From IMG/VR virus record IMGVR_UViG_2541047681_000004: a stretch of DNA of 19,518 nt, one strand, 5' to 3'. The DNA is from a virus. Its lineage: Duplodnaviria > Heunggongvirae > Uroviricota > Caudoviricetes. The position numbers and the translations under genes are program-made. Positions 2,792 through 17,722 of this stretch are shown in pieces. Below the pieces are notes generated by a model. It did not search any database and had not been told where the DNA came from. It saw nothing but the letters and a program-made list of their open reading frames with translations. The stretch's first letter is position 1. Every line of letters begins with the position of its first letter.

Positions 2792-3322
2792 TTACTGCAC
2801 ATCCTGCTCAAAAGGAATTATTGAAAAATCCTCAATATCACTTTTTATGGTAATACCGGGAATATTTTTCACGGCGTCCTTTTCATTCAGGATAGCGTCT
2901 TTATTTATTTCCTCTTTTACACGAATAAAGCGCTCAAGCCCCAGACGTCTCAGTAATTCAATAACATTATCCGCCCCACGGATACTGACTGATGGCGGAC
3001 GGTTTCGTCACTGCACCTCGCCGGTGGTGAGGTTAGCGAACTTCACCTTCCCGTTGCCGGTCAGTTCATCACGGTGTGCCTCACACCATGTCTGAATACC
3101 GGACTGCAGTTCGGCCATGCGTTTTTTCAGGCTCTCGGTGAGCGGGGCATAACGTGCGGTGATATCGCCAATGGCGTCATTCATTTCTGTTTCAGCCCTG
3201 ACCAGTTCACGTTGTGCGTCACCGAGTAGTCTGATTCCCTCAATGACCTCTTCACGTGTCCCCGGCACCCAGAGTGCTGCTGCGGCCTTGATACGTTTTG
3301 CACCTTTTGTACTTTTTGCCAT
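2792..3322 (-). pseudogene. gam: Gam-like host-nuclease inhibitor, interrupted by an in-frame TGA at 3008-3010
   Basis: The N-terminal 104 codons (3011..3322) and the following 71 codons (2795..3007) are in the same frame, and both resemble Mu Gam as I recall it. They are separated only by one TGA; the downstream segment has no further stops until TAA at 2792-2794. Confidence 0.7.
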
Positions 3323-7493: not shown

Positions 7494-7802
7494 TTATAAA
7501 CGACTACCTGAAATGACACGTTGGTTGATTTCGTTAATACGATCCTGCGCTCGTGCCATCTCGTTACTGTGAGCCATGGCGATCTGCAGTAACTGGATGC
7601 CCGGTGCAAAACGTCCATTCTCCAGTTTCAGGGCCAGCCCTTCTTCAATGAGGGTGTTGAGTGCCCGATTAATGTTTGCTGGTGACTCGTGCAGTGCTGC
7701 CGCCAGTTCACCGTTGGAGATACCGTTCAGAGCGTGGCCACGTAACGCCTTAAGAACACGCAAAATACGGGTACCTGCGCTTGATGTATTTGGTTTATTC
7801 AT
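7494..7802 (-). CDS. winged-helix DNA-binding protein (IclR N-terminal HTH-like), 102 aa
   Basis: RILRVLKAL...GISNGELAAAL...SPANINRALNTLIEEG resembles the IclR-type HTH. Second gene of the early operon. Confidence 0.45.
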   Translation of the reverse strand: MNKPNTSSAGTRILRVLKALRGHALNGISNGELAAALHESPANINRALNTLIEEGLALKLENGRFAPGIQLLQIAMAHSNEMARAQDRINEINQRVISGSRL

Positions 7803-8023
7803 GACACCTCCTTAAGGATACCGGGGGTAACTTCTTTACCTATTGCAACCGATAGATCTCGCAAAATCCGATAAGTCAAACGACCACGTGGTAGTTCACT
7901 TTTACCAGCCCAGCGACTGACTGCCTGTGTGACTGTTCGTGGCTCATAGCCTGCGTTAAGCGCGAACTGGCGCAAGCTACTGCCTCGTTCAACTAGTCGT
8001 GCCCGAACTTGTTGTTTATTCAT
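7799..8023 (-). CDS. small HTH DNA-binding early regulator (Ner/Cro-like by position), 74 aa
   Basis: First gene of the leftward early operon, divergent from the repressor. HTH-like segment SLRQFALNAGYEPRTVTQAVSR. Confidence 0.5.
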   Translation of the reverse strand: MNKQQVRARLVERGSSLRQFALNAGYEPRTVTQAVSRWAGKSELPRGRLTYRILRDLSVAIGKEVTPGILKEVS

Positions 8024-8096
8024 ATGCGGATAGTTCCAGTTGGGTTATCATGTACTCAATATGAATAAATGTACTTATTCAAAATAAATAAATCAA
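8024..8096. promoter_or_regulatory. divergent early/repressor promoter region with candidate operator
   Basis: AT-rich 73-bp spacer between divergent genes. Inverted repeat TGAATAA-N6-TTATTCA at 8062-8081; ATGTACT occurs at 8050-8056 and 8069-8075. Candidate minus-strand promoter TTGATT-N17-TACATT overlaps the repeat. Confidence 0.5.
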
Positions 8097-8528
8097 GTGG
8101 AATTACGCAAAATGAATAACAAAGATGTTAACGCTGTGCTTTCCCGGTTAATGTCACTATTCCAAGCAGAGAATGATAGTGAGTTGGCAAGAGCGCTTAA
8201 CGTCAATAGGCAGACACTTGCAAGTTGGAGGAAGCGTGATTCTGTGCCTTATGCAATTTGCATAAACATCGCAGAAGAAAAGGGGGTTTCTTTAGATTGG
8301 TTGCTAACAGGTAGAAAACAAGGTTTATCAAAAGAAGTAGACGTAACTCCGACGCAAGTGCAGTTTAGCCAAGCTGACCTTACTATGCTTGAGCTTTTAA
8401 AGCAGCTAGACCCCGAGGTTCGTAACGATCTTCTGCGAGGCGCTGCGGAAAAACAGCGAGTGATCGAGATGGAAAAACAACTGAAGGAATTATCCGCAAC
8501 GATTGAGCGGTTAAAAAATGTGGGTTAA
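8097..8528 (+). CDS. CI-type phage repressor
   Basis: N-terminal HTH (LARALNVNRQTLASWRKR) with a coiled-coil C-terminus, typical of CI-like repressors. Divergent from the early operon. Start uncertain: GTG 8097 or ATG 8112. Confidence 0.7.
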   Translation: MELRKMNNKDVNAVLSRLMSLFQAENDSELARALNVNRQTLASWRKRDSVPYAICINIAEEKGVSLDWLLTGRKQGLSKEVDVTPTQVQFSQADLTMLELLKQLDPEVRNDLLRGAAEKQRVIEMEKQLKELSATIERLKNVG

Positions 8529-8548
8529 TCTATTCCCAATGAGAACAA

Positions 8549-8580
8549 TTGACAAGGTTATCAAACCTCTTCGTTATATG
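8549..8580 (+). promoter_or_regulatory. possible sigma70-type promoter for the downstream cassette
   Basis: TTGACA at 8549-8554 followed 17-20 bp later by a weak -10-like TATA-rich segment (8572-8580). The cassette may also be read through from the repressor promoter. Confidence 0.25.
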
Positions 8581-8650
8581 CGCTGATTTAAACAGTAGGA
8601 TGTGCTGTTTGCACTAACCATCTGAACTTTCCGCGTTAAGGATTAATCGT

Positions 8651-9544
8651 ATGAGTGGTGATGTGAGAAATTATCGTATTGAGTTTCATCAGCTATCGTT
8701 TAAGGCCACAGATCAGCTGGCAAATCTCGGAGATGCTTTTCAATCTGTAATTGATAAACAGAGCCCTTCCTCTTCAAACCATGAGGGTTTTACTAGAGAA
8801 ATTTGGGGGTTGAAAAAACGCGCGGATGGTTCTTTTAGTGGAGAGTTGAGAAAATTTCGCAACTCGAACATTCCGGATAAAGGTGCACCAGGGAAACAGT
8901 CTACCCCTATTCCACTTGCCAAGGATGAAGGGATCATTGAGCGCAATTTCTTTGTATTCTATCCTCGAATCAATGTTATAGGTTGGCACTATAATCATAT
9001 GGCTTGTGGTATAAGCCGTTTTAGTGCATTTCTTTCAACTATCTTTGGTTCAAAGGTTAAGCCCGCACCTTTGCTGGAAAAAGATGCAATCGCTAGGCTT
9101 ATGAGAGGAGATGTCAAAATGAAAAAAATCCAGTTGACGATTCCTCGCCCCCGTAATCCTGAGTTTTACCCTGATACTGATTTCAGTCAAAAGACACTAC
9201 AACTGCTTGGTGATGCAGGTGCCGATACAATGCAAATTGTAATGGGGATTAATACTCGCCGTGGCGATAGTGATGGTAGGCTTAAGCAGAATATAAAATT
9301 TGCTATGCAAGAGTTAGTCGAGTTTGGGGCGAAAAAGGCTGTAATTGATGTGTTCGATGCTGATGGTGTTGTCCATCCTGTGGATTTGATTGCCGAGCGT
9401 ATTTCGTCCTATCAATCGGTAGTTACTGACGCTCGTTTCCCTCCAGCCGAAACCATGTACCGTCTAATCGATACTGCGTATGCTGAAAACCGGGAGAGTA
9501 TCAATGCATATATTGGAGAAGATGAACTCGGCCCTATTGCTTAG
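8651..9544 (+). CDS. unknown soluble protein, 297 aa; candidate RexA-like component of a repressor-linked exclusion module
   Basis: AAGGA 9 nt upstream. No hydrophobic segments. AT-rich codon usage unlike the flanking phage genes. Sits directly after the CI-type repressor on the same strand. Function is inferred from context only. Confidence 0.6.
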   Translation: MSGDVRNYRIEFHQLSFKATDQLANLGDAFQSVIDKQSPSSSNHEGFTREIWGLKKRADGSFSGELRKFRNSNIPDKGAPGKQSTPIPLAKDEGIIERNFFVFYPRINVIGWHYNHMACGISRFSAFLSTIFGSKVKPAPLLEKDAIARLMRGDVKMKKIQLTIPRPRNPEFYPDTDFSQKTLQLLGDAGADTMQIVMGINTRRGDSDGRLKQNIKFAMQELVEFGAKKAVIDVFDADGVVHPVDLIAERISSYQSVVTDARFPPAETMYRLIDTAYAENRESINAYIGEDELGPIA

Positions 9545-9941
9545 TTTATTGATTGGATGTGGGATTGGTTTTCTCTACTGGTTCAAGTTGCCCCATATGC
9601 CAGTAGCCGCAATCCCAAACTTCATGACTACATTGTCCAGTGTCTTTGCAACGTTGTTAGGTTTTATTATTACAGCAATTGCACTACTTGCATCATTGCT
9701 TGATAAACCGTTACTTAAAAACATGCAAAAAACCGGACATTACAAGCGTCTGATGACCGATGCATTCTACACTTGCTTAGTTTTGCTAGTGTTGGTGTTG
9801 ACATGTTTGATTGGGTTGATGCTGCAAAGTAAGCATCAAGAGATTGTAGCCGCTATTCTCATTGGGCTTGTTGTTATGTCTATGTTGTGTTTATTACAAA
9901 CAGGTAGGCGATTATTCAATATAATCAAAGTGATATCATAA
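9504..9941 (+). CDS. small polytopic membrane protein, ~145 aa, 4 predicted TM helices; candidate RexB-like partner
   Basis: GGGAGAG 5 nt upstream of ATG 9504; start overlaps the upstream gene by 41 nt. Four hydrophobic segments (ALLLSLLIGCGIGFLYWF, LSSVFATLLGFIITAIALLASLL, AFYTCLVLLVLVLTCLIGLML, IVAAILIGLVVMSMLCLL). Alternative start ATG 9522. Confidence 0.6.
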   Translation: MHILEKMNSALLLSLLIGCGIGFLYWFKLPHMPVAAIPNFMTTLSSVFATLLGFIITAIALLASLLDKPLLKNMQKTGHYKRLMTDAFYTCLVLLVLVLTCLIGLMLQSKHQEIVAAILIGLVVMSMLCLLQTGRRLFNIIKVIS

Positions 9942-9965
9942 CAATGCACCATCAGGTGCATTGTT
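9940..9965. terminator. perfect 11-bp hairpin between convergent genes (candidate bidirectional terminator)
   Basis: AACAATGCACC-atca-GGTGCATTGTT; begins at the membrane-protein stop and lies 29 nt from the dam stop on the other strand. No long U tract, so intrinsic termination is uncertain. Confidence 0.4.
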
Positions 9966-9993
9966 ATGCAAGACTACTTACCTCCTTCTGAGC

Positions 9994-10761
9994 CTACTCT
10001 AAATTACTTACAATAAGTTCGCGCCGTAGTGTTCCCTTTCCTGCAAGACTGTAGTTGACCTTCACACAGTGAATGTTCAGACCGTTAAAAACCTGCCGCA
10101 TTTCCGGGATATCGTTGACCGATATAATCATCTTTCCTCTGATGCACCGGGCCAGCTCTGCCAGCCGCGAGTAGTTCCCTTCAGGAAAATCCACACCATA
10201 GCCTTCCGTACCCAGGTACGGTGGGTCGCAGTAGAACAGCGTGTGCGGACGATCATAACGCTCAATGCACTGTTGCCAGTCCATGTGTTCTATGACTGTT
10301 CTGGAAAGCCGCAGGTGTGCCGCTGACAGTTCTTCTTCAATACGCAGCAGGTTGAAGCGTGGCGGGGATGTGGTGGAGGTACCGAAGCTGTGCTCTGCCA
10401 CCTTGCCGCCAAACGCCTGCTTCTGAAGGTAGTAAAACCGTGCCGCACGCTGGATATCCGTCAGTGTTTCTTCCGGGGTGATCTGCAGCCATTTGTAGAT
10501 CTGACGGCTGACCAGCGCCCATTTGAACTGGCGGACAAATTCTTCCAGGTGATGCTTTACCACCCGGTACAGATTCACCAGTTCACCGTTGATATCATTG
10601 ATGACTTCGATCTTGCCGGGTGTCTTAAGAAAATAGAGCGCTGCTGCCCCACAAAACGGCTCCACATAACATTCATGCGCCGGAAACAGCGGCAGGATGT
10701 GTTTTGCAAGGCGGCGTTTGCCACCAATCCATGGAACGATGGGTAATGTCTGCATTTTCAT
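9994..10761 (-). CDS. DNA N6-adenine methyltransferase (Dam-like), 255 aa
   Basis: Motif I-like FCGAAA and catalytic DPPY (FYCDPPYLGTEGYG) in the order seen in Dam-family enzymes. No restriction endonuclease partner visible. Confidence 0.8.
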   Translation of the reverse strand: MKMQTLPIVPWIGGKRRLAKHILPLFPAHECYVEPFCGAAALYFLKTPGKIEVINDINGELVNLYRVVKHHLEEFVRQFKWALVSRQIYKWLQITPEETLTDIQRAARFYYLQKQAFGGKVAEHSFGTSTTSPPRFNLLRIEEELSAAHLRLSRTVIEHMDWQQCIERYDRPHTLFYCDPPYLGTEGYGVDFPEGNYSRLAELARCIRGKMIISVNDIPEMRQVFNGLNIHCVKVNYSLAGKGTLRRELIVSNLE

Positions 10762-10830
10762 AATCTGTAAGCCTTTTACAATTATAAAAAATATGGCAGG
10801 CTAGTCTGGTCTCGCGAGACTGACTGAACC
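10762..10830 (-). promoter_or_regulatory. putative dam promoter with upstream 12-bp palindrome
   Basis: On the minus strand a consensus TATAAT (RC of 10781-10786) lies ~20 nt upstream of the dam ATG. Perfect palindrome GTCTCGCGAGAC at 10809-10820 just upstream. Confidence 0.3.
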
Positions 10831-10866
10831 TTGGTCGGCTCACAGCGCATTCCTGTGGGGCGATGG

Positions 10867-10894
10867 CCAGCCCGGTGTTCGGGTACCGGGCTGG
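10867..10894 (+). other. GC-rich hairpin (9-bp stem, 10-nt loop)
   Basis: CCAGCCCGG-tgttcgggta-CCGGGCTGG, followed on the plus strand by TCGTTCTTTC. Lies in the 190-bp gap between dam and the 71-aa ORF; could be a terminator-like or regulatory structure. Confidence 0.3.
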
Positions 10895-10950
10895 TCGTTC
10901 TTTCATGATGCGGCAGGGATGGCGGGATTTCTGTTAATGTGGTTTAGGGA

Positions 10951-11166
10951 TTATCCGGGGCGATTTTCTGACCTTATCCGGTCCAGGGCATAAGTAATAC
11001 CTTCTGCAAAAACAGAAGTATCAAACTGCTTTTGTATTCCCTGAAAATGAAAAGCGGCACGACAGACACTCAGTTCTCCGCGGTATAACCGGATAATATC
11101 TTCCAGAACATTGTTCACTGCTTCAGCACGGCGCTGATGTTCTGTTAACGTTAATCGGGGATTCAT
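10951..11166 (-). CDS. hypothetical protein, 71 aa
   Basis: Strong AAGGAG 6 nt upstream of the ATG (RC of 11173-11178). No family recognised. Confidence 0.4.
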   Translation of the reverse strand: MNPRLTLTEHQRRAEAVNNVLEDIIRLYRGELSVCRAAFHFQGIQKQFDTSVFAEGITYALDRIRSENRPG

Positions 11167-11167
11167 G

Positions 11168-11569
11168 ATGCACTCCTTAAATGATGATTTTTATGTACTC
11201 ACCGGCAAAATATTCTGCCGATTACTGAACACGCATCCGGCACCTCAGGTTTTGATTTATTCTGGTTTTTTCGATATCCCGGACCAGGTTGATCACGACC
11301 AGAAAAAGTGCCGGTGTTTTATTGATACGCTGATATGGCTTCGGGATAACAGCTATATTCGTTACTCTCAGTTGCTGGCTGTGGGAGCGGCTGATGTCGT
11401 CCTCACGGAAAAAACGCTCTGTCTGCTCAATGCCATGCCGACCTTTCTGCAGCCCCGGCCCGTACCATTTAAAGAGTCACTTCTGGATGCAGTAAAAACC
11501 GGTGAAAATGCAGTCATCGCTGAATGCGTATCCCGGATTATGCGTTACGTGTTTAATGAACGTAAGTGA
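11168..11569 (+). CDS. hypothetical protein, ~133 aa
   Basis: GGGGA 6 nt upstream of ATG 11168 (track start 11165). Its 5' end is back-to-back with the 71-aa ORF and its 3' end overlaps the convergent NTPase gene by 25 nt. No family recognised. Confidence 0.35.
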   Translation: MHSLNDDFYVLTGKIFCRLLNTHPAPQVLIYSGFFDIPDQVDHDQKKCRCFIDTLIWLRDNSYIRYSQLLAVGAADVVLTEKTLCLLNAMPTFLQPRPVPFKESLLDAVKTGENAVIAECVSRIMRYVFNERK

Positions 11570-12273
11570 GGTTTATCCGCTGTCTGCATAATCCCGATAG
11601 CCAGTGCGAGGGGAAGTAATTCCGGGGAAACTCTTTCAAACAGCGATGCCCATTCTCCTCTCGCCATCACTCTGTCCAGCCCGCCCCCCAACTGCATTTC
11701 AGCAATCTTCCTGATTTCCCGGAACAACGCCGCTTTGATCTCTTCATGCTCAGCTTTATTTTCCGGTGTCAGAAGGTATTCGTCGAAGAACCGGGGAGGC
11801 TGGTTAATCGGGATGTGTTCCTGTTTGCCGTACTTCGGGGACGAACAACATTCTGTTGACTGACCAGTGAGTTTACGTAACTCCTTCATGAGCAGCTCCT
11901 GATCGTAAACTGTCATCAGTGCCGCAATGGTGGCATGCAGTGCATCGGGCAGTATCCAGGGTTGCCGGCCCGTGGGGCATATAACATCCAGCAGCTCATT
12001 CGTCCGACAGATACGCTCCTCGCCGTATGACAACAGGCCCTGTCCCGTGTATTCCTCCAGCCTGATCACTGTGCCAGCCCGTGGTTTCTGCCATGTGCTC
12101 AGATCATCCCCACTCATACGGCGCTCACCGTCCACGTCTGCGGCGTCGACAATGACGCTGTTTCCGAATTCCTGTTTCACCACTTCCTCTATCCGCGCCA
12201 ATATGTAACTTTTACCGCTGCCCACAGGACCGGACACGGTGACAGTGATGACCGGATTCAGTGTCTGCGTCAT
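11545..12273 (-). CDS. P-loop NTPase-domain protein, 242 aa
   Basis: Walker A GPVGSGKS near the N-terminus. GAGGAG 8 nt upstream. Divergent from the late lysis operon. C-terminal half unrecognised. Confidence 0.6.
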   Translation of the reverse strand: MTQTLNPVITVTVSGPVGSGKSYILARIEEVVKQEFGNSVIVDAADVDGERRMSGDDLSTWQKPRAGTVIRLEEYTGQGLLSYGEERICRTNELLDVICPTGRQPWILPDALHATIAALMTVYDQELLMKELRKLTGQSTECCSSPKYGKQEHIPINQPPRFFDEYLLTPENKAEHEEIKAALFREIRKIAEMQLGGGLDRVMARGEWASLFERVSPELLPLALAIGIMQTADKPHLRSLNT

Positions 12274-14765: not shown

Positions 14766-15268
14766 TGGCCAGACGCAGCACAATAGAAAAGCTGCCGGAA
14801 GATGTGCGCCGCTGGCTTGAACGGGCGCTGACTGAATCCGGCTTCAGCGGGTATAACGAGTTGGAGTCCCTGCTGCGTGAGCGGGGGTACGTCATCAGCA
14901 AATCCGCTATCCATCGCTATGGACAGAAGATTGAGCGCCGCTATGGTGCTATCCGTGCGGCAACAGAAGCGGCCCGCATGCTGACCGAAGGCGCAGCAGA
15001 CGATCAGGATGCGCGTTCGGAGGCTGTGATAGCCCTTATTCAGACCGAGCTGTTCGAGAGTATTGTCCAGTTGCAGGAGGCGGAAGAAGGCGAAGTCGAT
15101 CCTAAAGAACGCGTGGCCCTGCTGTCGAAGGTGGCGAAGAATGTGGCTACGCTGTCCCGCGCGTCCGTCAACCTCAAAAAGTTCCAGTCTGAAGTACGGG
15201 CCAGAGCGCAGCAGGCAGCCAGCAACGCCGAGAAAATTGCCCGTAAGGGGGGTATGAGACGACAATAA
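14765..15268 (+). CDS. small terminase subunit-like protein (Mu gp27/DUF3486-like), 167 aa
   Basis: Size, helical/charged composition and position immediately upstream of terL (before the IS) fit Mu gp27-type proteins. Coupled start (TAATG). Confidence 0.55.
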   Translation: MARRSTIEKLPEDVRRWLERALTESGFSGYNELESLLRERGYVISKSAIHRYGQKIERRYGAIRAATEAARMLTEGAADDQDARSEAVIALIQTELFESIVQLQEAEEGEVDPKERVALLSKVAKNVATLSRASVNLKKFQSEVRARAQQAASNAEKIARKGGMRRQ

Positions 15269-15345
15269 CTCAGTCCGCCTGGCGCCGATTATTCTGGCCG
15301 GTTTTGTAACCTGAGTGTCATTTACATGATCCAACAGGAAATGGC

Positions 15346-16845
15346 GTGACGCTCAATACTTCTCAGGTCAGTTACTATATGACTCAGCGTAAGAAAGGTA
15401 TAACTCAGCATATCTCGGCCATGAAGGCTGGTATCTCAGTCCGTTCTGGTCGTCGGATCGAAAAAGGAGAGTGGGCAAAAAACAGTGTTCGGCACTGGCG
15501 CACACGCAAAGATCCTCTGGAAGCTGTGTGGGACAGCATGCTTGTTCCTCTGTTGAAAGAGAGGCCGGCTCTGACACCAACAACTCTGCTGGAGATGCTA
15601 CAGGATAAATATCCCGGCCAGTACCCCAACAGCCTTCGAAGAACAATGCAACGGCGGGTCCGCGAATGGAAGCTACAGTATGGTGCAGAGCAGGAGGTCA
15701 TGTTCCGCCAGCGACATCAGCCCGGTCTGCGAGGTCTGTCGGACTTTACTGAACTGAAAGGTGTAGTTGTCACCATCGCCGGTAAGTTGTTGGCGCATAA
15801 GTTGTATCACTTCCGTCTGGAATGGAGCCACTGGAGCTGGATGCGGGTTGTGCTGGGTGGTGAGAGCTTCTCTGCTCTGGCTGAAGGTCTGCAGGAAGCC
15901 CTCGGACAACTGGGCGGAGTGCCGGTAGAACATAAAACGGACAGCCTGAGGGCAGCATGGAAACAACAGGGCGAAGATGGACGCCGCGAGCTGACTGAGC
16001 GTTATGCTGCTCTCTGTCAGCACTACGGAATGCAGGGCGTACACAATAATGCCGGTCGGGGCCACGAAAATGGCTCGGTTGAAAGTGCCCACGGACATCT
16101 GAAAAGGCGTATCTGTCAGGCGCTGATACTGCGGGGCAGTAACGACTTCAGCACCATAGAAGAATATCAGGCCTTCATCACTCAGCAGGTTATGCGGCAC
16201 AACCGTAACAATCAGGATCTGGTCAAGGAAGAACGTCTTCATCTGAAACCGCTGCCGCTTCGTCGCAGTGCTGACTATGATGAGCTGACTGTGAGGGTTA
16301 GCCGCAGCAGTACCATCAATGTGAAGCACGTCGTCTACAGCGTACCTTCCCGGCTTGTAGGTCAACTGTTACGGGTCCGGTTATGGGACGATCGTCTGAG
16401 CTGTTACGTTGGCAGCAGCGAGGTCATGAGCTGCCCACGTGTCAGACCAGAAAAAGGGAAGACGCGGGCCCGTCGTATCGACTTCCGACATGTGATCGAC
16501 AGTCTGGCAAAAAAGCCCGGTGCGTTCTGCCATGCAACGCTGAGAAATGACATCCTGCCAGACGATGAATGGCGGAGGCTGTGGCGTCGCTTATGTAATC
16601 ATCTGGAACCCGACATGGCAGGCAGGCTGATGGTACATGCTCTGAAACTGGCTGCAGGATACGACGATATCTCAGTCGTGGCAAAAGGTATGGAGCAGAT
16701 GCTGAATACCCCGGGAAACGTGGATCTGCACCGGCTGATGCGCTTCCTGGGTATAAAGGAAAAGGCGTTGCCGGTAGTCAATGTGAAACAGCATAACCTG
16801 AGCAGTTATGAGCAACTACTGCGTGGCAAGGGAGGTTCGCAGTGA
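15346..16845 (+). CDS. istA: IS21-family transposase IstA, 499 aa from GTG 15346
   Basis: N-terminal HTH (ISAMKAGISVRSGRR), integrase-type catalytic core, conserved HENGSVESAHGHLKRR segment. AGGAA 5 nt upstream of GTG 15346; alternative ATG 15379. Confidence 0.85.
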   Translation: MTLNTSQVSYYMTQRKKGITQHISAMKAGISVRSGRRIEKGEWAKNSVRHWRTRKDPLEAVWDSMLVPLLKERPALTPTTLLEMLQDKYPGQYPNSLRRTMQRRVREWKLQYGAEQEVMFRQRHQPGLRGLSDFTELKGVVVTIAGKLLAHKLYHFRLEWSHWSWMRVVLGGESFSALAEGLQEALGQLGGVPVEHKTDSLRAAWKQQGEDGRRELTERYAALCQHYGMQGVHNNAGRGHENGSVESAHGHLKRRICQALILRGSNDFSTIEEYQAFITQQVMRHNRNNQDLVKEERLHLKPLPLRRSADYDELTVRVSRSSTINVKHVVYSVPSRLVGQLLRVRLWDDRLSCYVGSSEVMSCPRVRPEKGKTRARRIDFRHVIDSLAKKPGAFCHATLRNDILPDDEWRRLWRRLCNHLEPDMAGRLMVHALKLAAGYDDISVVAKGMEQMLNTPGNVDLHRLMRFLGIKEKALPVVNVKQHNLSSYEQLLRGKGGSQ

Positions 16846-17597
16846 GCAATATCCATCACCTTGAACGCAGCCTGCGTAAACTACGCCTGACACGAGTTGG
16901 AGCTGAATGGCACGCTCTGGAAAAACGAGCACTGGCAGAAGGCTGGACACCATCGCGCTATCTTCTGACGCTATGCAATGAAGAACTCCTGTGGCGCGAG
17001 AGTGAAAAACTGCGTCGTTATAAAAAGGAGGCCCGGTTGCCAGTTGCCAAAACGCTAAGCGAATACGACTTCAGTCAGGTGCCGGAACTGAATGGAGCTC
17101 AGTTCCGGCAACTCTGTGAAACGACAGACTGGGTTGATGCAGGAGAAAACGTTCTGCTGTTCGGAGCCAGCGGGTTGGGGAAAAGCCATCTGGCGGCAGC
17201 GATCGTGGATGGCGTAGTAGGCCAGGGCTACCGGGCCCGGTTCTACAGCGCAGGAGAGTTGTTGCAGGAACTACGTAAAGCCAGAGCGCAGTTGAAACTG
17301 AATGAGCTGCTACTGAAACTGGATCGCTACCGGGTGATAGTGGTGGATGATCTTGGCTATGTCAAACGCGACAGCGCCGAAACGGGAGTACTGTTCGAGT
17401 TAATAGCGCATCGCTATGAACGTGGGAGCCTGGTGATAACCAGTAACCATCCGTTCAGCATGTGGGGCAGCATCTTCGTGGATGAGACTATGGCGGTGGC
17501 GGCGGCAGACCGGCTGATCCATCACGGATATATGTTCGAACTGAAAGGTGAAAGCTACAGGAAAAAGACAGCGAAGGCAGTAACAAGCGCGACTTGA
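16842..17597 (+). CDS. istB: IS21-family helper ATPase IstB, 251 aa
   Basis: Walker A GASGLGKSH, Walker B VIVVDDLGY and the IstB-like tail HHGYMFELKGESYR. GTG start overlaps the istA stop. Confidence 0.9.
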   Translation: MSNIHHLERSLRKLRLTRVGAEWHALEKRALAEGWTPSRYLLTLCNEELLWRESEKLRRYKKEARLPVAKTLSEYDFSQVPELNGAQFRQLCETTDWVDAGENVLLFGASGLGKSHLAAAIVDGVVGQGYRARFYSAGELLQELRKARAQLKLNELLLKLDRYRVIVVDDLGYVKRDSAETGVLFELIAHRYERGSLVITSNHPFSMWGSIFVDETMAVAAADRLIHHGYMFELKGESYRKKTAKAVTSAT

Positions 17598-17722
17598 TGT
17601 CGCACTGAAGGGTGCGGCCAGTATAGTTGGCGCGAGTCGGCAAAACTAGTTGACGTCTAATAGGGGGGACTGTCAAGCGACGCAGTACAGGCGCTTCGTC
17701 GCGAGATTCTGGGGATTGCCAC

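Follow-up and report, generated by a model that had tools for sequence, protein, structure and literature searches.

The closest described systems to the locus reported here are the RexA/RexB pair of phage lambda, the RexABpp pair (PP_5643/PP_5644) of prophage P1 in Pseudomonas putida KT2440, which has been validated (Rosendahl et al., Sci Rep 2026, PMC12894663), and the Rex-like pairs of the actinobacteriophages Sbash, CarolAnn and Butters; five Rex-like systems in total were counted by a 2026 paper. In lambda RexA, a split globular domain carries an inserted dimerisation domain and a hinge, and the residues R219 and K221 are required for in vitro DNA binding and for T4rII exclusion. In RexABpp, the toxicity caused by overexpression of the A protein required the B protein, and suppressors mapped to B; depolarisation or uptake of SYTOX/propidium iodide has also been reported for this pair. 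How RexA senses and how RexB opens have stayed unresolved for about 70 years, since the discovery of T4 rII exclusion, and the small number of known homologues is one reason. Here we describe a two-gene cassette at positions 8651 to 9941 of a 19,518-nucleotide (nt) stretch of viral DNA (IMG/VR record IMGVR_UViG_2541047681_000004, hereafter the window), which is the left part of a BcepMu-like, Mu-like transposable prophage of Escherichia coli.

The cassette consists of two overlapping genes, which we call gene A and gene B.

Gene A, 8651..9544, plus strand: soluble protein of 297 amino acids (aa), 33.3 kDa, isoelectric point 7.8; DUF6731 family; predicted RexA/RdgC-type two-domain fold; putative sensor/DNA-binding subunit.
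Gene B, 9504..9941, plus strand: 145-aa membrane protein with four predicted helices; putative RexB-like effector; overlaps gene A by 41 nt; alternative starts at 9480, 9522 and 9597.

The original prediction, made from the sequence alone, had described an open reading frame (ORF) for a 297-aa soluble protein downstream of a repressor and an overlapping ORF for a four-helix protein of about 145 aa, and had proposed that the two resemble the lambda Rex genes. Both ORFs were recovered, at 8651-9544 (+) and as 145 aa from ATG 9504, and the description proved accurate throughout. Judged from their sequences they are real genes, and comparison with the orthologues in one related locus (L008) showed strong purifying selection, with ratios of nonsynonymous to synonymous substitution (dN/dS) of 0.09 for gene A and 0.04 for gene B. 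The Rex-like hypothesis is likewise supported, by a RexA-like fold and moderate profile similarity of A and by RexB-like size and topology of B. Based on these observations, we suggest that the two genes probably form a Rex-type, prophage-encoded two-component exclusion (abortive-infection) module whose sequence is too divergent for existing models.

The evidence for gene A comes first from its predicted structure. An AlphaFold2 (AF2) model built from 17 sequences reached a mean predicted local distance difference test score (pLDDT) of 75 and a predicted template-modelling score (pTM) of 0.73. When this model was compared with 48,164 and with 350,542 chains by two independent structure-comparison methods, RexA was ranked first by both, and the Foldseek search of the larger set placed RexA at the top with an E-value of 8.3e-8 and a probability of 1.00. 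The list of structural neighbours is the same as that given by Adams et al. for RexA itself, and a fold search against BFVD returned mostly unnamed phage proteins. In the model, seven strands and two helices are followed by an insert (residues 144-245) of four strands and three helices, a return strand and a C-terminal helix. This order of elements is that of the published RexA topology, with its seven-stranded N-terminal sheet, insert, return strand and C-terminal helix, and A is thus predicted to have the split beta-sheet domain with a four-stranded sheet/helix insert by which the RexA/RdgC structural superfamily is recognised. The template-modelling score (TM-score) between A and RexA was low, 0.38-0.40, as would be expected for a protein of two domains joined by a hinge.

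The second line of evidence is profile comparison. When a DUF6731 profile of 138 sequences was aligned with a RexA profile of 29 sequences using hhalign, the E-value was 1.3e-4 and the probability 54%, which is below the usual standard of at least 90%. The alignment covered 219 collinear columns (14-260 against 2-236), and it scored 37.5, whereas the reversed profile scored 18.1 and none of 30 column shuffles scored above 18.4. Motifs aligned between the two families include L-x-x-DE-[SG]-L, the hinge region and D-[IL]-L near the domain return. The RexA family profile was needed to reach this probability, and hhalign of A with the single RexA sequence gave just 2-3%. The profile and structure searches against RexA that the original prediction had called for thus placed RexA at the top by fold and gave a suggestive result by profile. 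Taking the profiles and the model together, remote homology of A to RexA is well supported, although not proven.

Gene A carries little annotation of its own. Direct hidden Markov model (HMM) searches gave no informative match in Pfam, NCBIfam or PADLOC, phrog_7651 (function unknown) was its only direct database match, and PDB sequences searched with phmmer gave zero matches. An hmmsearch of PDB sequences with the 138-sequence profile returned marginal matches to eIF2-alpha (E 0.02), which we treated as chance. Assignment to DUF6731 (Pfam PF20505) is by homology: proteins 72-76% identical to gene A over 96-99% of its length match this family, as do 15 of 17 aligned relatives (best E 3.4e-14), while the hmmscan score of gene A itself is below the reporting level. 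An exhaustive HMMER search found 1051 relatives among cluster representatives at 50% identity, nearly all of them single-domain proteins of about 290 aa. Across the family, R70, E97, F101, P167 and D245-L246-x3-R250 appear invariant.

Since the same fold is shared with RdgC, we considered whether A is a phage RdgC-type modulator of recombination or replication, which would limit RecA or protect DNA ends, with B tethering or regulating it and no abortive infection taking place. We regard this as quite unlikely. RexA scored above RdgC by both structure-comparison methods, and neither gene A protein nor its aligned relatives have a Pfam RdgC match. RdgC works without a membrane partner, whereas here a four-helix partner is universal and translationally coupled. 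In addition, a Salmonella lambdoid prophage holds both a bona fide RdgC gene and the cassette, which argues against a redundant function.

We then turn to gene B. Its reading frame is open from 9480 to 9941 (+) and could encode at most 153 aa. The best-supported start is ATG 9504, which has GGGAG 7 nt upstream, and M1, I3 and L4 counted from this start are invariant in 13 homologues down to 61% identity. In RefSeq/PGAP the protein is annotated with 114 aa (WP_128915888.1, start 9597), which drops the first hydrophobic helix, while metagenome gene callers and conservation support the 145-aa form. In a Scandinavium prophage (L003) the partner gene was uncalled, though it is present in the near-identical L004. 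Hydropathy analysis showed hydrophobic stretches at 3-29, 40-70 and 83-134, and the AF2 secondary structure divides the last of these, giving four long helices (2-28, 36-65, 79-106 and 112-144). Hydropathy and AF2 are therefore both consistent with the four membrane helices that had been proposed. Apart from compositional matches, gene B matched phrog_8552 and phrog_17119 (both function unknown), the latter of which is weakly matched by RexB as well.

The likeness of B to RexB lies mainly in its build. B has 145 aa and RexB 144 aa, the hydrophobic blocks of RexB (4-27, 44-69 and 79-140) resemble those of B, and the central loops of both proteins contain four K/R residues. Gene B thus has the properties by which we defined a RexB-like effector, namely a length of about 145 aa, four transmembrane helices, a basic central loop and a position directly 3' of gene A. 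A conserved (K/R)-T-G-H motif lies in the basic loop between helices 2 and 3, and together with a C-terminal arginine-rich (GRRF-like) segment it makes up what appear to be the conserved positions of B. The hhalign comparison of the B-family profile with the RexB profile was weak (E 3e-3, probability 10%, 116 collinear columns), and its score of 24.3 exceeded the controls (at most 15.8), for which it must be considered that a column shuffle is lenient for membrane proteins. In this alignment the conserved KTGHY loop is set on the conserved YGYM loop of RexB. B and RexB were not significantly similar by BLASTP (E 0.49). Hence, of the proposed parallel with RexB, the size, the hydropathy pattern and the basic central loop hold, while the profile match is weak.

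The overlap of the two genes and their tight coupling are typical of toxin-antidote pairs, and mycobacteriophage Butters gp30/gp31 has been described as working in reversed roles. The roles could accordingly be reversed in the manner of Butters, or be toxin-antitoxin-like, with A as a toxic effector that B sequesters or neutralises until infection. However, the other lambda-like Rex systems (Sbash, CarolAnn and P. putida) use the membrane protein as effector, and Pfam and fold searches of A revealed no sequence or structural feature pointing to an enzymatic toxin. This arrangement of roles thus seems improbable to us.

Several observations weigh against a Rex-type module as a whole. Identity between A and RexA is only about 13%, and the hhalign probabilities do not exceed the values given above (A 54%, B 10%). 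Confidence in the middle domain of the A model is no more than moderate, with pLDDT 60-70, and at pLDDT 63 the model of B is too poor for a meaningful fold search. The column shuffle that served as control for B is lenient because it destroys the helix pattern. The RexA family HMMs (Pfam PF15969, PADLOC PDLC02339 and phrog_12654) did not match gene A protein, and RexA HMMs also missed its relatives, of which 17 were scanned against Pfam and three against PADLOC. Likewise, the RexB HMMs (Pfam PF15968, PADLOC PDLC02340 and phrog_14878) missed B and 17 partner proteins. As positive controls, the PADLOC models detected lambda RexA at 9e-110 and lambda RexB at 8.6e-61. R219 and K221 of RexA are not aligned with basic residues in A. 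Consensus scans found no convincing cassette promoter, either here or in the Salmonella lambdoid context. Finally, a full-text literature search found no paper naming DUF6731.

Alternatively, the resemblance to Rex would be convergent or a modelling artefact, and the genes would form an unrelated membrane-associated accessory module, for example for superinfection exclusion at DNA entry or as a moron acting on host physiology. The missing Rex HMM matches, the low TM-scores to RexA and a B-RexB similarity that is not statistically secure all agree with such an explanation. We nevertheless consider it very unlikely: the two independent structure methods both put RexA first, a low TM-score is what a hinged two-domain protein should give, the profile alignment of A with RexA is collinear over its whole 219 columns with twice the score of the controls, and the partner independently reproduces the length and hydropathy pattern of RexB.

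We next consider how the pair is conserved. The survey comprised 40 loci of the family with downstream DNA, drawn from viral contigs, GTDB genomes and the isolated Pseudomonas phage AUS531phi. Adjacency of A and B was kept in all 40, down to 21-28% identity. The partner downstream of the DUF6731 gene has 139-179 aa and three to five predicted helices, usually overlaps it, and in many loci carries (K/R)(T/S)GH. The pair was found in enterobacteria, Halomonas, Stenotrophomonas, Paraburkholderia, Pseudoalteromonas, Idiomarina, Hydrogenophaga and metagenome-assembled genomes of Bacteroidota. Among isolated phage genomes, megablast gave no match and tblastn only two distant phage matches.

The genomic position of the pair varies. 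In BcepMu-like prophages the cassette follows the repressor. In one of them (L010 4336-5864, cassette 76% identical), two extra genes without a Pfam match (194 and 132 aa) separate the cassette from a different, 168-aa repressor of the helix-turn-helix (HTH) family HTH_31, a layout that mirrors P. putida P1 with its CI repressor, two genes and rexAB. A lambda-like order was found in viral contig L022 and in phage AUS531phi, where cro points leftward and cI (S24 type), A and B point rightward. An S24-type repressor also lies directly upstream of the pair in Vreelandella (L049) and Idiomarina (L065), and in P. putida NBRC 14671 (L058) one lies near it, one gene away. In Halomonas colorata (L047 3020-4743), what precedes the cassette is not a phage repressor but a umuD-like S24 protein together with a polymerase gene of the impB/umuC family. 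In lambdoid prophages the cassette is located between Q and methylase or lysis genes on the opposite strand, and terminators flank it in the Salmonella lambdoid prophage. Other copies lie beside P2-type portal/terminase genes or among Mu-type head genes. Sites of all these kinds are typical places for morons. Repressor linkage, which the original prediction had taken as a feature of the module, is therefore present in the window and recurs elsewhere with unrelated repressors, but it is not obligatory or defining, and in most lambdoid, P2-like and Mu-head contexts the pair is far from the repressor.

In the Salmonella lambdoid prophage, a bona fide RdgC-family gene (PF04381) was found just beyond the cI repressor (L005 15990-16885 and L006 10184-11079), and therefore two members of the RexA/RdgC fold occur in one phage. 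The Scandinavium prophage encodes a toxin-antitoxin pair, HicA/HicB (L003 2816-3470), at a distance of about 4.5 kb from its copy of the cassette. The validated rexABpp of P. putida P1 also adjoins hicAB2, and this proximity may be a coincidence or reflect a shared hotspot for accessory genes.

These contexts bear on whether the cassette chiefly serves the prophage itself. Lambda RexA has a RexB-independent activity, in which it binds DNA and repressor and stabilises the lytic state. By the same activity, A could bind DNA and repressor and tune the lysis-lysogeny switch of its own prophage towards the lytic state, with B as a modulator and with exclusion secondary or absent. Such a role fits the position of the cassette behind an unrelated repressor of the same strand, directly or one to two genes away, which is seen in the window and in at least six further contexts. 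It also fits that no separate promoter or terminator lies between repressor and gene A in the window. However, most lambdoid copies are on the opposite strand, with Q on one side and the lysis genes on the other, and others stand by P2-type portal/terminase or Mu-type head genes, far from the switch. An accessory of the switch would also be expected to move together with its cognate repressor, but the repressors are of different kinds (CI-HTH only, HTH_31 and S24 type), and the membrane partner is always retained although a function at the DNA level would not need it. We therefore consider a role chiefly in the switch to be unlikely.

Returning to an exclusion module of the Rex type, the breadth of the family allows a further suggestion, which we make tentatively and with somewhat less than even confidence. 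DUF6731 and its four-helix partner may be a large unrecognised branch of the Rex superfamily, an abortive-infection sensor/channel pair of more than 1000 clusters at 50% identity that extends from Gamma- and Betaproteobacteria to Bacteroidota and moves between Mu-like, lambdoid and P2-like prophages, where it occupies immunity regions or moron slots; its invariant positions may then be the functional core of Rex signalling. More boldly, the cassette may have been captured repeatedly behind unrelated repressors because it has a second role like that of RexA, namely to stabilise the lytic switch of whichever phage carries it.

The region around the cassette in the window contains the following features.

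Replaceable immunity-plus-cargo segment, 7803..10036, no strand assigned: 2.2 kb with Ner-like gene, repressor and cassette, delimited by comparison with sibling prophages and by GC content.
Ner/Cro-like HTH gene, 7799..8023, minus strand: 74 aa; opens the leftward early (transposition) operon and points away from the repressor gene; matches phrog_8503 (E 1e-34) and, weakly, HTH_35.
A/T-rich repeats, 8053..8121, no strand assigned: three TAYTCAAWATRAATAA-like copies of 18 nt in the promoter region that separates the divergent Ner/Cro-like and repressor genes; inverted repeats.
Repressor, 8097..8528, plus strand: CI-type HTH protein without S24 protease domain; 143 aa from GTG 8097 or 138 aa from ATG 8112 (RefSeq); PF07022 (E 1.2e-17) and repressor PHROGs.
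Gap between repressor and gene A, 8529..8650, plus strand: 122 nt, examined by consensus scan and folding.
Hairpin, 9937..9968, no strand assigned: perfect 14-bp stem with a 4-nt loop, overlapping the gene B stop codon and lying between the convergent gene B and Dam methylase genes.

The CI-type repressor that the original prediction had placed directly upstream on the same strand is thus identified by its Pfam match. It ends 122 nt before the cassette and is transcribed in the same direction, so that temperate-phage carriage and repressor linkage, both expected of a Rex-type pair, are found together in the window. In the gap (8529-8650), the consensus scan found neither promoter nor terminator, and RNA structure was not significant. 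At 8549-8554 there is a TTGACA hexamer, but the -10 element 19 nt further on is poor, and the L008 cassette (94% identical) does not conserve the hexamer. Co-transcription of the cassette with the repressor is plausible as the simplest reading, and the TAYTCAAWATRAATAA-like repeats, as candidate operators for the immunity switch, may drive the cassette as well. At the other end, the hairpin folds with -21.5 kcal/mol (z = -6.0), and 0 of 200 shuffles fold as well. It has no T-run and no canonical terminator was called there; it marks the 3' boundary of the cassette and is likely to be a transcription or RNA-stability element.

By analogy with lambda RexAB and the validated RexABpp, we infer for the A-B pair an exclusion function and a mechanism, together with expression in lysogens, dimerisation and DNA binding of A, interaction between A and B, and channel activity of B. 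The pair would be made in the lysogen, here probably from the repressor transcript, with B translationally coupled to A. A, with its predicted RdgC-like DNA-clamp fold in which a split globular domain carries an inserted beta-sheet dimerisation domain, would as a dimer sense the superinfecting phage, either as phage DNA, as protein-DNA intermediates of replication or recombination, or as a phage protein. Activated A would then engage an oligomeric B channel, whose basic loop, presumably cytoplasmic, carries (K/R)TGH. Membrane potential or integrity would be lost, growth would stop, and the infection would be aborted.

Comparison with other E. coli prophages showed that the cassette is accessory in this prophage lineage and absent from sibling prophages. 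It is present in 23 of 5426 complete E. coli genomes, and the neighbouring Dam gene in 527. In JJ1887, a strain of sequence type 131 (ST131), the flanks are 98-99% identical to those of the window, while window positions 7803-10036 are replaced by 0.85 kb with no similarity between the two; these 0.85 kb contain a different Ner gene and repressor and no cassette. Across repressor and cassette the GC content is 0.41, as against 0.54-0.56 in the main early and late regions, and the Ner-like gene with its neighbour has 0.50.

The remainder of the window has the layout of a transposable prophage. It carries Mor, Gam, a DDE/rve transposase, a MuB-like AAA protein, Mu gp27, a Mu-type portal and Mu F. 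The early operon runs leftward from about 8023 and comprises the Ner/Cro-like HTH gene, a second HTH gene, DUF3102, DDE/rve transposase, MuB-like AAA, Gam, gp16 and Mor, and the rightward arm, from about 12370, holds lysis genes and Mu-type head genes. Between the two arms lie the three plus-strand genes, namely the repressor, gene A and gene B. The same prophage is inserted beside nagE in FDAARGOS_1258 and inside a lysR-type gene beside yeeZ in MEI3O-23, and since these sites differ, the prophage inserts by transposition.

Three further observations concern other parts of the window. First, positions 9994-12273, between the cassette and the lysis genes, form a conserved block common to sibling prophages (about 10% of complete E. 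coli genomes). This block encodes an orphan adenine methylase of the Dam type (D12 class; PADLOC MTase_II, E 1e-112), two small proteins without known function (phrog_4490 and phrog_2266) and a protein of 242 aa whose N-terminal part contains a P-loop (phrog_3787; weak AAA_30/KAP matches). Second, the Mu Gam-like gene is interrupted at 2792-3322 (-), and only an N-terminal ORF of 104 aa (3008-3322) is still open; the Gam gene is a RefSeq pseudogene with an internal stop in FDAARGOS_1258 and is intact in MEI3O-23. Third, a 2.4-kb element of the insertion sequence family IS21 occupies 15253-17661, inserted relative to the sibling prophages and absent from FDAARGOS_1258, MEI3O-23 and JJ1887. It encodes an IstA-like protein (499 aa, 15346-16845) and IstB (251 aa, 16842-17597), and an overlap of about 7 bp at its junction resembles a target duplication. 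The Mu gp27-like gene (DUF3486), which immediately precedes the large terminase, has its 3' end altered by the insertion, so that the copy of the prophage in the window may be packaging-defective.

If the two genes are indeed a Rex-type exclusion module, Rex-like defence would no longer be a curiosity of lambda but a cargo widespread among prophages. A deep and diverse alignment of both subunits would become available, with conserved positions open to mutagenesis. It would also mark a blind spot in defence annotation, as PADLOC v2 finds lambda RexAB but no DUF6731 pair. The cassette would further offer an example that is native to E. coli and genetically tractable, for which the cassette-free ST131 sibling prophages are natural isogenic controls.

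Finally, we compared the cassette with known systems, among which Kiwa, RdgC proper and toxin-antitoxin readings, like that of chance ORFs, were ranked lower or rejected. Kiwa is a defence pair of KwaA, a small multi-pass membrane protein with four helices, and KwaB (DUF4868), a soluble protein of about 300 aa, and its gene order is reversed relative to that of A and B. PADLOC scans, with a database (PADLOC-DB v2) that we take to hold Kiwa models, gave zero Kiwa matches for the window proteins or their relatives, and no Kiwa chain was among the top structural matches listed for A. RdgC (PDB 2OWL) differs in that it is chromosomal, stands alone without a membrane partner and has an additional tip domain. 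RexABpp is larger, with 37.5 kDa for RexApp-His and at least 181 residues for RexBpp against 33 kDa and 145 aa here. Its termini deduced from primers (MHRTATFV... and ...VYNKQSRLMV) are unlike DUF6731, and the primer sequence is absent from all loci examined. Judging by these sizes and termini, RexABpp probably belongs to another branch of the superfamily than DUF6731.

The actinobacteriophage pairs (Sbash gp30/gp31, CarolAnn gp44/gp43 and Butters gp30/gp31) also combine a soluble RexA-like, dimerising DNA-binder with a membrane partner in temperate phages. They differ in their Gram-positive hosts and, by description, in their sequence families, and in Butters the roles are reversed. Some of them lie beside the immunity repressor and others elsewhere, which is the same mixed placement as that of the DUF6731 cassette. 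With lambda RexA/RexB (PDB 8TWQ), the cassette shares a two-gene operon in which the gene for a soluble protein of about 280-300 aa precedes that for a membrane protein of about 145 aa with four helices, directly downstream of the repressor and on the same strand of a temperate phage. The lambda genes are separated by a gap of 15 nt, whereas A and B overlap by 41 nt; the loop motif is YGYM in RexB and (K/R)TGH in B; and R219 and K221 of lambda RexA are not conserved in the alignment with A. Unlike lambda, to which identity is about 13% with no Rex HMM match, the host here is a Mu-like transposable phage whose repressor has no S24 domain. A Rex-type cassette in a transposable phage is a new host context and not a new principle.

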